Shown one piece after another: positions 9,001-15,000 of a DNA stretch of 22,380 nt; the first letter of the stretch is position 1, and the number at the start of each line of letters is the position of its first letter. Location of the stretch: NCBI GenBank assembly GCA_037446215.1, contig JBBIJB010000022.1, forward strand, positions 2,733 through 25,112, read 5' to 3'. Source of the DNA: Armatimonadota bacterium (GTDB taxonomy: Bacteria > Sysuimicrobiota > Sysuimicrobiia > Sysuimicrobiales > Humicultoraceae). A program made the position numbers.

Positions 9001-12000
9001 GCGCCGGCAGAAGGCTGCCCACCCGGATCCGGCGTATCTGCAGTATCCCCAGGCCCAGCGCAATTATGAGCGCTCCTCCCGTGGCCGTCATCTCCCGCGT
9101 TACCTCCGGGGTCATCACTCCGCTGACGGCGGCGGCCGCCAGGGTAACTCCTCCCTGGTAGACCAGCACAGTGCCGGCCGAGAGCAGGACGCCCGCGCCG
9201 AGCGCGGCGCCGAGGGCAACGGAGGAGATCCCGTCGAGTAGCGACTTCGTGTACAGCAGCACCGGCGTCTGCCCGAGCCCGTCTTGGATTGCGCCGAGTA
9301 TCGTCATCGGGCCGACGCAGAACAGCAGGCTGCTGGTGACGAAGGCCTGGGCGGTTCCCCCGCCGGCCGCGACAGGCCCGGCGAGTCGCTCCGCCCACCG
9401 GCCGAGGGCGTCTATCCCTTCCTCGATGTGCAGCCCCTCGCCCAAGGCCGCGCCGAGGGCCAGGCTCACTATCACGCCCAGGATGTTCCTGGTCTGCAGC
9501 GCCATCTGGAGTCCGATCAGGAGCGTGGCCAGGCCGATGGCCGCCATCACCGCCTCTCGGACCCGCTCGGGGAGGCGCCTCTGCAGGCCCAGGCCCGCGG
9601 ATCCGCCCACCACGACGGCGATCACGTTCACGATGGTTCCTTCCAACTCAGGTCCCTTCCAGGCCCAACTCGGCCGCGACTCCCCGCATCGCCTCGATCA
9701 CTGTGGTCACGTGCTCGTCGAACGGGACCCCGAACTCCTCCGCGGAGCGCAGCAGCTCCTCGCGGGCCACCGCCCTCGCGAACGCCTTATCCTTCATCTT
9801 CCGGCGCACGGCGGCGGCGTCCACGTCGTGGACGCTGCGCGAGGGGCGCACGAGCGCGACCGCCGCGACGAAGCCGGTGAGGTCGTCGCACGCGTGCAGG
9901 GCCTTCTCCATCTTGGACTCCCTCGGCACGCCCGTGTATCCGGCGTGGGAGAGGACCGCGCGGGTAACCGCTTCGGGGTAGCCGGCGGAGCGCAGGTGCT
10001 CGGCGCCCCGGATCGGGTGGCCCGCCTCCTGCGACGGAAACCGCTCGTAGTCCAGGTCGTGCAGCAGCCCCACCAGCCCCCACAGCTCCTCATCCTCGCC
10101 GAGGCGCCGGGCGTAGTGCCGCATGGCGGCCTCCACGGCAAGCACGTGCTTCCGGAGGCTGGGGGTGGGGATCCATTCGCAGACCAGGGCCCACGCCTCT
10201 GCCCGCGGGGGTAGTGATGCCGCCTCGCTCATCTCGCTCCCCCTCCTGCTCCGGGTCGGAGCGCCAGCGCCTCCACCAGGCGCTCAAGGTCGTCCGTCGA
10301 GAAGAAAGCTATCCGAATCTCGCCGCCCCCTCCTCTCTTGACGCGCAGGCTGACCGGCGCGCCCAGCGATTCTCGGAGGGTTTGTTCAATGACGCTCAAC
10401 TCTGGGTCGCGAGCCTTGCGCTTCGCGCCTATTTCACGTGAAATGAGCCTCCTCGCGGCCTCTGCCTCCGTCTCCCTGACCGACATCCCCCTGGCCTCGA
10501 CCTTGCGCCAGACGAGGAGGAGTCTCTCGGGATCCGGGATCGCCAGCAGCGCGCGGGCGTGGCCTTCGGTGATCCGCCCAGCCTCTAGAGAGGCCTGGAC
10601 CTCCGCGGGCAGCGAGAGGAGGCGGACCGCGTTGGCAATCGTCGGTTGGCTCCTGCCGACCCTGCGCGCCACCTGCTCCTGCGTCAACCCGAACTCGTCT
10701 ATGAGCCGCCTGTACGCCCTTGCCCTCTCCATGGGGTTCAGGTCCTCGCGCTGGAGGTTCTCGACGAGGGCTACCTCGAGGGCGTTCCGGTCGTCCATCT
10801 GGCGGACCACGGCGGGCACGGAGCTCAGCCCGGCGGCCACGGCCGCTCGCCAGCGCCTCTCTCCCGCCACCAGCTCGTATCGGTCGCCGGATGGGCGAAG
10901 GAGCACCGGCTGCAGCACGCCGTGTTCGCGGATCGAGGCCTCCAGCTCTGCGAGCGGCTCGCGGTCAAACCCTGCGCGGGGCTGCAGCGAGTTCGGCCTG
11001 ATCCGGTCCACCGGGATCTCCGTGACGCCGGTCTCCGGCACGAGGCCGGCGCCGGGAATCAGGGCGCCCAGGCCCCGGCCGAGGGCACGGCGGGGCTGGC
11101 CGTGCTCAGGTGCCCTTGGTCTGGGGTCCTCCACGGCTTATCACCTCCTGGGCCAGTGATCTGTAGGCCTGGGCGCCGCGCGAGTCCGGGTCGTAGAGGG
11201 TGATCGGCTTGCCGTAGCTCGGCGCCTCGGCCAGCCTCACGCTGCGCGGCACGACCGTATCGAAGACCTTCTCCTTGAAGAATCGCCTGACCTCGCTCGC
11301 GACCTGCTCAGACAGGTTGGTGCGGGCATCGTACATGGTGAGCACGACGCCCCCGATGTCCAGGGCCGGGTTCAGGTGCTTCCGCACGAGCTCGATCGAG
11401 CGGAGCAACTGCCCGAGCCCTTCGAGCGCGTAGTACTCGCACTGGATCGGGATCAGCGCCTCTCCCGCGGCGGTCAAGGCGTTCACGGTCAGCATCCCCA
11501 GCGAGGGCGGGCAGTCGAGCAGCACCACCGGGTAGTCGGCCGGCATGAGCGCCGCCTCGAGCCTCCTCTCGGGAGAGCCGCTCCCGACGAGTTCGACTTC
11601 GGCGCCGGCAAGGTGGATCGTGCTTGGGGCCAGGTCCAGCCCGGGAACCTCTGTGGGGACTACCACCCTGCGCAGATCGACCCCATTCAGGAGCACGTCG
11701 TACAGGGAGCCGGTGGGCAGGTCGCGGCCGACGCCGAGCCCGCTGGTGCTGTTCGCCTGCGGGTCCAGGTCCGCAAGGAGGGTCCTGACTCCTGCCTCGG
11801 CAAGGCACGCGCCGAGGTTGACGGCCGTCGTGGACTTCCCGACGCCGCCTTTCTGGTTGACGATGGCGATGGTGCGCTTCACGGTCCCAGGACTACCATT
11901 CGTCAAGGAGGATCGCCCTTCCCTCTAGCCGGCAGGGCCTACACAGGCCTCCCGAGGGCAGGGCCCCGCCTTGGATACGGCTGAGGGGTTGGGGCGTGCT

Positions 12001-15000
12001 TCCGCAGCACGAGCGCGGCCGTCTTCCGGCCGGGCTCCGGGAAGGAGCGCACCTCGCAGGCTTCAACTGAGGCGCCCATGGCGCCCACCAGGGCGGCGAT
12101 CTCTCCGATCTCTTGCTCTACCGCGGGGCCCTTCAGCAGCACCGCCGCCCCGCCGACCTCGACCAGCGGCAGGGTGAGCTCCACCGAAACCGCGGTCCTG
12201 GCCGTGGCCCGCGAGACGACGACGCCGAACGCCTCCCTGAACCCCTCGGCGTGCCCCATCTCCTCGGCGCGGGACCAACGCACCGCCAGGTCCGGTAGGT
12301 TGAGCGAGGCCCTCACCTCCTCCAGGAAGGCGCACCGCTTGCGGGAGGCCTCGATCAGGACGACCTCCAGGTCGGGCCTGGCGATCTTCATCGGAACCCC
12401 AGGGAACCCGGCGCCGGACCCGACGTCAGCCAGCCTGCACCCTCGGGCCGGGCAGAGCACGGCGAGGGGCACAAGCGAGTCGAGGAAGTGGCGCAGGACT
12501 ACCTCGGTGTCCGAGGACGCCGAGGTGAGGTTCAGGCGCCCGCGCCAGCGAGCGATCTCTTCGAGGTAGGACCGGAAGCGCTCGCTTGCTCCTGGTGGAA
12601 GCGCAACACCGAGCGCCCCGGCGCCCTCCACCAGCTTTGCCAGGGCCGGGCTCACCCGGCCAGGGTCAAGGGTTGTCTCCGGGGGAAGTTGAGTGGTGCT
12701 CTTCTTTTCCATGGTCTGGGCCCTCGCCCGGGGAGGCGGGCCTGACCACGACGTGCCTGTAGGGCTCCTCCCCGCTGCTCTCGGTCGCCACCCGAACATC
12801 GTCGCGAAGCGCGATGTGGGCCGCGCGGCGGTCCCTGGGCCCCATGGGCTCGAGGGCTACCGGCCTCCCCTGCGCGGCCGCCTGCTCGGCGGCACGATGA
12901 GCCGCCTCGGCGATCGCTTGCTCGTGCTTGGCGCGGTAGCCCATGGCGTCCACGGTCAGGGCGACGCGGCGGCCGAGTCGCTGTTGCACATGCAGGGCGA
13001 CCAGGAGCTCGAGGGCGTCGAGCGTACGCCCGTTCTTGCCTATGATCCCCTTGAGGTCGGGCCCCTTGAGTACCACCTGGATGCCGTCTTCCGACCGCGA
13101 GGCCTCGCCCTGGGCCTCGTGGCCCATCAGGCGAAGGATCTCTAGGGCGACGTCGCGGGCGACCTCGTGGTCCGCCTGGAGAGGCGACAGCCTCACCCGC
13201 GCCTCGCGGCCTCCAAACCCGAGGAGCGCGGGCCGCGGCTCCTGGAGCACCTCCACGGTCACCTGGTCCCGCGGCACACCCAGCTGGGCGAGCGCGGCCG
13301 CGATCGCCTCGGCGATAGTCCTCCCGGTACCCTCGGCCGTGTCCATCAGTCGCCCGAACCCTTCTTGGCCGCCTTCGCTGTCTGCGCGCGCGGCTTCCTG
13401 GGGGGCGCGACGCCGATCTTCTTGGGCAACCCAACGACGATCAGGTACTCGGCGATGTAGATGAACGTGGAAGAGATCCAGTAGAGGGACATGCCGACAG
13501 GGAACTGGGTCGAGAACCAGGCGATGAGGAAGGGCATGAACACGAACATCCTGGCCTGCTGGGGGTCGGTTATGGACAGCCGCTGCTGCATGTATGTCGA
13601 GGAGGGGGATCATGGCGATCAACGGGAACTCCCCGATCACGGCGAAGGTGGGGTGCGCCTCGAGGGCGACGCCGAGGAACGTCTCTCCACCGAACAGGTT
13701 GGGCCTGCGCAGCAGCGCGAACAGCGCCCAGAGCACGGGCAGCTGCGCGAGCATCGGCAGGCAGCCGCTGAACGGGTTGACCTTGTTGGCCTTGTAGAGG
13801 TTCATCACCTCGGCGTTGAGCTGCCGCGGATCCTCCTTGTACTTGCGGCGCAGCACCTCCATCTGGGGCGCAAGGGCCTGCATCGCCTTCATCGAGTTGA
13901 GCTGCTTGCGCGTGAGGGGGTGCAAGACCACCTTGATGGCGAGGGTGAGCGTCACGATGGCAAGGGAGTAGCTGTGGGTCACCCCGTAGATCGCCTGCAA
14001 TCCGACGTTGAGCGTCGTGGCTATCGCTTCTATCAATGCCTTGCCTCCCTGGGAACCGGATCATAACCGCCTGGATTGAAGGGGTGGCACCTCGCGATGC
14101 GTCGGGCCGCGAGGAAGGCCCCGAGCGCCGGTCCGTGGCGCTCCACGGCCTCGGCGGCGTAGGACGAGCAGGAAGGGTAGAACCTGCAGGCGCGCGGCAG
14201 GAGCGGGGAGAGGAGCCGCTGGTAAGCGCGGATCAGAAGCAGGAGGAACCTCTTCATTGAGCGCCCTCGCCCTGGTCGCCCAGTAGTCCGGCCGAGCCAA
14301 GGGCCTGCTCGACCGACCCTCTCAACTCCGAGAAAGAGGCCTCCGCTGCCGACTCCCTCGGCGTCACCACGATCTCCGTTCCCGGCGCGATCCTGCGTGC
14401 CAGGGCGCGGACGGCCTCGCGTAGGCGCCGGCGCAGCCGGTTTCGCCGAACCGCGGAGCCAAAGCGCCTACCGACGGCAACTCCCAGGCGCACGCCTCCG
14501 CGGTCGCCTGGGAGGTAACGTATGACGACGAGCGGCGACGACCGGCGGCCGCCTTCGCGGTAGACGCGCCGGAACTCCTTCTCGCTCGCCAGGCGCTCAA
14601 GGGGGCCAGCGCACACGGCTCCGTCCTTAGCCTGAGACGGTGAGCCGATGCCTCCCCTTTGCCCTGCGGCGGCTGAGGGTACGGCGACCGCCGGGTGTGC
14701 GCATCCGGGAGCGGAACCCGTGGACCCGGCTGCGCGATCTGTTCTTAGGCTGAAAGGTGCGCTTCACGTTTGTGCCTCCTGGCAGAACAGAGAAACTATA
14801 TCACAGGGTCCTTCCCGCGGCAACGAACACCTCGCATCAAGGGACAACCTGCGATCGGGCCGATCGGTAGGGCCCCCGCGCGGGTGTTGGAAAGCTGTAG
14901 AAAACCGGGGGGGCTGTCCACATGTTTGTGCGCGGCCCGGTCACGGGGTCGCGCCTTCCCCCGCCTTTCTTCGGGTATTCCGGCCGGAAATCCACAGGGG

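Follow-up and report, generated by a model that had tools for sequence, protein, structure and literature searches.

Members of the phylum Sysuimicrobiota (CSP1-3) lack MnmE, MnmG, Elp3, and Dus, and searches of 94 genomes confirmed that these absences are real. The genome-wide survey's note that pointed to this locus had predicted that the phylum lacks xm5U34 and tRNA dihydrouridine (D), or makes them with unknown enzymes. The first part stood, in that the known routes to both modifications are missing, while the second received no positive support. We consider it probable that both marks were simply lost without replacement, as actinomycetes have done for one of the two.

The junction between jag and rsmG is empty

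The analyzed stretch of DNA (22,380 nucleotides, hereafter the window) carries on its minus strand the gene order rpmH-rnpA-yidD-yidC-jag-rsmG-parA-parB. This origin-flanking operon starts with a gene whose translation we take to be that of rpmH, encoding ribosomal protein L34 (14627..14767), and continues with rnpA for the RNase P protein (14254..14616; PF00825, E 7e-27), yidD (14033..14257; TIGR00278, above cut-off), yidC (13346..14036; PF02096), jag/EloR (12666..13346; NF041568, above cut-off, with Jag_N, KH, and R3H), rsmG (gidB) for the 16S rRNA m7G527 methyltransferase (11939..12712; TIGR00138, above cut-off; PF02527, E 4e-40), parA (soj; 11106..11906; PF13614), and parB (10229..11134; PF02195, PF17762). 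The yidC gene is frameshifted at about 13599, where an alignment with three relatives revealed a gap of 11 bases. These bases are present in contigs of three of four sibling runs, the fourth having no coverage there, and the gap is most likely an assembly error.

The jag frame (13346-12666) overlaps that of rsmG, whose first ATG lies at 12712; the true start of rsmG may be further downstream. Since jag runs into the rsmG frame, nothing lies between the two genes, and the minus-strand junction (12666..12712) is empty at the place where Bacillota carry mnmE-mnmG (3.3-4.4 kb). It is spanned by contigs from four public runs, all of one study that is possibly the source campaign. Apart from the window, jag adjoins rsmG in 10 of 12 related loci, which bears out the earlier claim that the two genes abut at the mnmE-mnmG place. 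One of the two exceptions ends at a contig end, and the other shows no rsmG match in the roughly 600 bp that separate jag from parA. Outside origin loci for comparison were taken from a DnaA scan, which had no phylum member among its matches.

MnmE, MnmG, and Elp3 are absent from the phylum

MnmE, for which the survey's note had no search, was now sought by its helical domain, found in 0 of 94 genomes (9 of 14 controls scored above cut-off), and by its N-terminal domain (TrmE_N), found in none of the 60 genomes that are at least 90% complete. The GIDA profile, which covers MnmG and TrmFO, gave only weak FAD-motif matches across the 94 genomes (E >= 3.7e-12; the longest among the matches listed covers 168 of 391 positions), with one exception in G023. 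As a native mnmG this exception was rejected: it is a 52-residue piece at the end of a 4.4-kb contig of Gemmatimonadales DNA. The neighboring permease on that contig shares 63-80% identity with its 35 best relatives, every one of them titled Gemmatimonadetes or Gemmatimonadales; no Sysuimicrobiota title occurs among 80 loci of this permease, and a full or long mnmG frame follows it in 35 of the 79 others. MnmG is thus missing as claimed, the contaminant fragment being its only trace. The C-terminal MnmG family had no match in G000, the one genome searched for it. Our own profiles, built from 26 MnmG and 16 MnmE proteins and run against all six frames of that genome, revealed no MnmG, and the MnmE profile matched other GTPases only (Der, two HflX, and two Obg/YchF-like proteins). 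Elp3 (radical SAM plus KAT) and its YhcC/MnmL-like relatives were found in 0 of 94 genomes, in agreement with the survey's note on Elp3.

Known dihydrouridine synthases are absent, with a mixed D-loop picture

The Dus profile matched in 4 of 94 genomes at E<=1e-8, namely a piece of DusA in G073, a PyrD, a protein encoded within a pyr operon, and a weak match (L108). The dusA piece (129 positions) lies at the end of a 7.4-kb contig beside nucleotidyltransferase-like and DUF1223 genes, and G073, with 6% contamination, is the sole carrier among the seven genomes of its genus; the piece is probably foreign. Apart from this fragment, the reported absence of Dus was upheld. RdsA, an alternative family of D synthases, and TrmB were each found in 0 of 5 genomes tested.

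The D-loops were compared in 47 of 47 parsed tRNAs of G001, 45 of 45 of G080, 28 of 31 of G000, and 55 of 61 of the Dus-bearing G219, together with 39 distinct tRNAs from the best 30 of 57 matching loci of G098, also Dus-bearing. U16, a position singled out post hoc, occurs in 8/47, 9/45, and 9/28 tRNAs of the three Sysuimicrobiota genomes, versus 31/55 in G219 and 26/39 in G098. U20 is not depleted (25/47 in G001 and 17/45 in G080 versus 17/55 and 21/39), and with all D-loop uridines pooled, the comparison with one GC-matched genome gave P values of 0.32 and 0.027.

Retained enzymes, tRNAs, and codon usage

Of the enzymes that the survey's note listed as kept, MnmA was detected by profile in 88 of 94 genomes, Tgt and TrmI are present in G000, the one genome checked, and TilS in that genome is split across two frames, a scan confirming its family only. 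The U34 tRNAs for Lys, Gln, Glu, Arg, and Leu exist as stated there. In both fully examined genomes, the near-complete G001 and G080, all six NNR pairs have C34 partners, that is Lys(CUU), Gln(CUG), Glu(CUC), Arg(CCU), Gly(CCC), and Leu(CAA), each beside its U34 counterpart; four of the six were found among 31 tRNA calls in G000.

Counted with a crude ORF filter on small samples, A-ending codons make up between 5% and 41% of Lys codons and between 12% and 44% of Glu codons, depending on the member; the same kind of count gave 23% and 30% in MnmG-bearing Gemmatimonadales. Avoidance is strong in G000, with AAA at 4.5-5.4% and CAA at 7.4-7.5% (two filters). As an explanation, codon avoidance was rejected, for it is not general in the phylum and MnmG-bearing Gemmatimonadales match it.

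Comparison with other lineages

Actinomycetota have an MnmA-only wobble system with the same features as that of Sysuimicrobiota: mnmE and mnmG are missing, mnmA is kept, GC content is high, and C34 partner tRNAs are present. Since jag also stands directly before rsmG in 14 of 14 actinomycete loci, and since MnmE, MnmG, Elp3, and Dus are all absent from 26 of 121 sampled Chloroflexota genomes, the rarity implied by the survey's note was too high. At U34, Mycobacterium tuberculosis is described as carrying s2U only (PMC13602947) and Streptomyces albidoflavus as carrying s2Um, its (c)mnm5 forms not having been confirmed on re-analysis (PMC12772374); an MMBR review still takes Streptomyces xm5U as a sign of undiscovered enzymes. 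A survey of 1093 genomes is summarized as placing the lack of MnmE/G essentially only in Actinobacteria, with a second loss in a small clade that may be Chloroflexi, and as linking the loss to retention of non-target tRNAs (PMC6063277). Actinomycetota, however, keep Dus (G219, G097, and a Corynebacterium control), and M. tuberculosis carries dusB and trmB (PMC10531406), whereas Sysuimicrobiota have no Dus and TrmB was missing in all five genomes tested. The new element is the loss of Dus, a gene that actinomycetes keep. Because Vulcanimicrobiota keep MnmG (59 of 61 genomes in the same type of search), the loss in Sysuimicrobiota is probably independent of that in Actinomycetota, a judgment drawn from gene presence in Vulcanimicrobiota rather than from a tree or from Armatimonadota, the published outgroup.

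Among the 121 Chloroflexota, MnmE is present in 56, Elp3 in 23, and Dus in 49. None of the 23 genomes with Elp3 also carries MnmE, which shows that some lineages replace MnmEG, by Elp3. Hosts of this Elp3 route to cm5U34 (archaea and some Chloroflexota) likewise have no MnmE/G, but Elp3 is absent from all 94 Sysuimicrobiota. MnmEG-less Chloroflexota have the same four absences as Sysuimicrobiota (MnmA being compared in the latter alone), the loss being patchy in the former and uniform in the latter. As to D, Pyrococcus furiosus is reported to have neither dus nor D, and a quadruple dus mutant of yeast to be viable (PMC9176250). P. furiosus and Sysuimicrobiota both have no dus gene, and many members of the latter come from hot habitats (PMC11604079). 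P. furiosus, however, is an archaeal hyperthermophile whose tRNA was shown by measurement to contain no D, while Sysuimicrobiota occur also in soils and groundwater.

Loss without replacement and its alternatives

The C5 side chain of U34 mainly aids the reading of G-ending codons and the keeping of the frame. We propose that mnmE-mnmG disappeared from between jag and rsmG by deletion in the ancestor of Sysuimicrobiota, a timing that we infer, and that the same ancestor would have lost dus, trmFO, and probably trmB with nothing taking their place. The U34 tRNAs for Lys, Gln, and Glu would then carry only the 2-thio group made by MnmA, which should suffice for A-ending codons, while G-ending codons, the majority, would be read by the separate C34 tRNAs whose genes are found in G001 and G080. 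With 2-thiolation alone on U34, MnmA would therefore be essential or nearly so; Salmonella is stated to survive loss of mnmE or mnmA, not of both (PMC5400242). D-loop uridines would stay unreduced, which a lineage with GC-rich tRNAs, many of whose members live in hot springs, can presumably afford. Against plain loss speak the Elp3 replacement in some Chloroflexota, the review's view of Streptomyces xm5U, and the poor growth described for single mnmE mutants of Salmonella (PMC5400242); moreover, codon avoidance does not set the phylum apart, and the D-loop picture is mixed, U16 being rarer and U20 not.

It is unlikely that the phylum still makes one or both marks with enzymes that bear no relation to MnmE/MnmG, Elp3, and Dus, for example a radical SAM protein or an unassigned flavoprotein. 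In favor of this reading, no U34 tRNA has been lost, A-ending codons are frequent in some members, U20 is not depleted, and replacement of MnmEG by Elp3 has its precedent in Chloroflexota. In addition, ten genomes, all belonging to family f1, carry an uncharacterised radical SAM gene close to mnmA, at a distance of up to about 3 kb in nine of them and of 7 kb in the other. As a phylum-wide substitute this gene was nevertheless rejected, for it occurs in only 24 of 94 genomes (0/23 in family f4, 0/12 in family f5), and the query used had no match in G001 and G080, which are the best assemblies. Furthermore, (i) its look-alikes in the Atlas are commonest in Acidobacteriota and Deinococcota, and the Deinococcus and Thermus controls possess MnmE/G, (ii) none of nine radical SAM matches in G000 belongs to a tRNA-U34 family, (iii) RdsA is missing in 5/5, and (iv) the main precedent, xm5U of S. 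albidoflavus, is the one reported as unconfirmed. We likewise doubt that Sysuimicrobiota and the matching fifth of Chloroflexota make C5-substituted U34 or D through a third enzyme family that has no relation to MnmE/MnmG, Elp3, Dus, and RdsA; such a family would at present be listed with radical SAM or flavin proteins of uncharacterised function.

Far less probable is that MnmE, MnmG, or Dus are present and too diverged for the profiles. The genome search does score just a limited set of candidates from its first look (17 per genome in the MnmG search), long queries may overlook 2 to 3 of every 100 weak matches, and L108 is an unclassified weak Dus match. Yet the unfiltered HMM search of all G000 frames was negative, the searches detected even the 52-residue MnmG and 129-position Dus pieces in contaminant-like contigs, the ancestral slot is physically empty, and other translation genes score normally. 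That the absences are an artefact of incomplete metagenome bins is largely refuted and scarcely credible: G000 is indeed 91% complete, in 149 contigs, with frame breaks in yidC and tilS, but of 54 genomes with at least 90% completeness and no more than 5% contamination, none has MnmE or Elp3 (MnmA occurs in 53 of them), the main contig of G001 measures 3.15 Mb, and single contigs bridge the junction.

Significance

Both xm5s2U34 and D have been termed universal, the former "universally conserved" in PMC5400242 and the latter in PMC9176250. Among the papers listed by literature searches, none reports these losses in Sysuimicrobiota or Chloroflexota in its title or abstract opening. Sysuimicrobiota are uncultured soil and hot-spring bacteria, and direct tests are limited because they exist in enrichments only. 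A free-living phylum whose genomes of 2-5 Mb are without MnmE/G, Elp3, Dus, TrmFO, and probably TrmB illustrates how far the tRNA modification set of a bacterium can shrink without parasitism. It also provides another test in nature of whether the C5 side chain becomes dispensable, as the rule has it, once C34 tRNAs and 2-thiolation are in place. For hunting any missing enzyme, the three-state profile of Chloroflexota (MnmE, Elp3, or neither; the two never coincide in 121 genomes) should be useful.

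The mnmE-mnmG position at the chromosome origin

The window represents the chromosome origin region of the genome G000 (2.16 Mb in 149 contigs; completeness, 91.3%; GC, 68%), and genes on its minus strand follow the order rpmH-rnpA-yidD-yidC-jag-rsmG-parA-parB. As stated in the genome-wide survey's note, jag abuts rsmG where mnmE and mnmG usually lie: the rsmG frame (first ATG at 12712) overlaps the end of jag at 12666, single contigs span the junction in four runs (all from one study), and jag adjoins rsmG in 10 of 12 related origin loci. Five of these loci are titled Ca. Fervidifonticultor and one Ca. 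Sysuimicrobiota; the other six, listed under different phylum names or none, were counted as members by similarity only. According to PMC11604079, Fervidifonticultor belongs to Sysuimicrobiota (CSP1-3), with Armatimonadota as the outgroup; the members described there come from hot springs, soil and groundwater and were grown as enrichments only. In one related locus (L101), roughly 600 bases separate jag from parA and rsmG gave no match; it may have been lost or have diverged there.

Outside the phylum, jag and rsmG occurred together in 41 of 80 origin loci. Of these, 27 had mnmE and mnmG in the 3.3-4.4 kb between the two genes, and neither was found in the remaining 14 (jag-rsmG gap, 44-1215 bases). 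Since all 14 are from Actinomycetota, the arrangement in the window is the actinomycete one.

A frameshift in yidC at 13599, consisting of an 11-base gap, makes this gene look fused in frame to jag. The gap is most likely an assembly error, because the missing bases are present in contigs from three sibling runs; tilS, broken across two reading frames in the same genome (G000:C33:18397-19575, L376), probably reflects another assembly indel. Directly upstream of dnaA (15247-16053, plus strand) lies a gene encoding an ATPase-like (HATPase_c) and winged-helix protein, with 58-74% identity in the 12 related loci.

Absence of known enzymes for xm5U34 and dihydrouridine

The searches covered 94 Sysuimicrobiota genomes from seven families of one order, including the unpublished G017 and G025 (neither these nor the unpublished G094 and G123 are the sole basis of any conclusion). 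MnmA was found in 88 of the 94, which indicates that the search method works on these bins. MnmE, not searched for in the survey, was detected in none of the 94 genomes with the helical domain profile, for which 9 of 14 controls exceeded the cut-off, and in none of 60 with the N-terminal domain. With the GIDA profile, whose range takes in both MnmG and TrmFO, the 94 genomes yielded weak FAD-motif matches (best E, 3.7e-12) among at most 17 candidates scored per genome, with 617 weaker matches beyond those listed, and a single 52-residue piece of MnmG, the start of the gene, at a contig end (G023:C196, L105). The latter was rejected as a native gene and ascribed to contamination, because a permease on the contig is 63-80% identical to Gemmatimonadetes proteins preceding mnmG; the contig resembles Gemmatimonadales DNA. 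Unfiltered profiles of 26 MnmG and 16 MnmE proteins, run against every reading frame of G000, revealed no MnmG and only five other GTPases. Elp3 and YhcC/MnmL-like matches were likewise absent from all 94 genomes.

Four genomes gave a Dus match at E<=1e-8: a DusA fragment lying at the end of a G073 contig, PyrD, a protein encoded within a pyr operon and a weak match without classification. The fragment, thus the sole recognised Dus, is the start of dusA beside mobile-looking genes on a foreign-looking contig (G073:C162, L110). None of the five best genomes (G000, G001, G047, G069 and G080) had TrmB or the alternative D synthase family RdsA; MiaA was present in all five and MiaB in two. The survey's claims that MnmG, Elp3 and Dus are missing and that MnmA is kept were therefore borne out, as were those on Tgt and TrmI in G000, which also carries QueA, TrmD, TsaD, Sua5, TruA, TruB and a cysteine desulfurase.

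Comparison with other phyla

MnmG was present in 59 of 61 Vulcanimicrobiota genomes, and the unpublished G094, at the centre of that sample, had MnmE and Dus matches. In Chloroflexota, sampled evenly (121 genomes, G095 and G099-G218; requested completeness at least 92), MnmE occurred in 56 (including the unpublished G123), Elp3 in 23 and Dus in 49, the last being missing in 72. MnmE and Elp3 never occurred together, and 42 genomes had neither; 26 of these also lacked Dus, and MnmG was absent from all 26 and present in three of three MnmE-positive controls. Hence, the absence of all four genes is common to about one-fifth of Chloroflexota, whereas Sysuimicrobiota are distinguished by its uniformity across the phylum. 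Actinomycetota share the jag-rsmG junction free of mnmE and mnmG, but Sysuimicrobiota additionally lack Dus and probably other tRNA-body modifiers. Our literature search retrieved no report of these losses in Sysuimicrobiota or Chloroflexota.

Loss or replacement of the modifications

We consider it probable that the genes were simply lost, following the actinomycete pattern, together with Dus and other tRNA-body modifiers. U34 carrying the 2-thio group alone would then read A-ending codons, and G-ending codons would be read by C34 tRNAs. As the survey's note had it, UNN-anticodon tRNAs exist: the near-complete G001 and G080 contain all U34 tRNAs and all C34 partners for Lys, Gln, Glu, Arg, Gly and Leu. 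Retention of mnmA fits this reading, because Salmonella is described as viable without mnmE or without mnmA, but not without both (PMC5400242). Mycobacterium tuberculosis, which lacks MnmEG, is reported to have s2U only (PMC13602947). The same review cites S. albidoflavus as xm5U-bearing; the 2025 re-analysis reports s2Um and did not confirm mnm5s2U or cmnm5s2U (PMC12772374). The measured MnmEG-less bacteria agree with a predicted 2-thio-only U34. As for D, P. furiosus is described as having neither a dus gene nor D, and yeast as viable without all four Dus enzymes (PMC9176250).

Some results cut across plain loss. A-ending codons are rare in G000 (4.5-5.4% for Lys); elsewhere in the phylum, A-ending codons reach 41% (Lys) and 44% (Glu), comparable to MnmG-bearing Gemmatimonadales, and high GC permits the loss without explaining it. 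Compared with two Dus-bearing genomes, U16 is scarce in the D-loops and U20 is normal, so the sequence is no proof that D is gone. Moreover, Elp3 stands in place of MnmE in Chloroflexota; replacement thus does occur, and enzymes of other kinds might still make xm5U34, D or both, which we regard as unlikely here. An uncharacterised radical SAM gene lies between aspS and rarA-mnmA, two genes from mnmA (G000:C77:4535-5731, L117, L323). It was excluded as a phylum-wide substitute: of the 94 genomes, 24 carry it and 10, all of family f1, have it close to mnmA, with no match in families f4 and f5 or in G001 and G080. Of the survey's prediction that the phylum lacks xm5U34 and D or makes them with unknown enzymes, the absence of known routes stood; the radical SAM candidate for the second option did not extend across the phylum.

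Other features of tRNAs and their modifiers

The Arg tRNAs (L211-L280, L344) comprise Arg(GCG) and Arg(UCG) without Arg(ACG) in G001, and Arg(ACG) in G080; judging by these genes, inosine decoding seems to have been lost in part of the phylum. With regard to a possible m5U54, TrmFO was found in none of the 94 genomes and RlmD in four of the five best, G001 being the exception. The isoleucine-type tRNA(CAU) of both G000 (C42:16875-16950) and G001 has GGATCG rather than GGTTCG in its T-loop, A replacing the usual U54.
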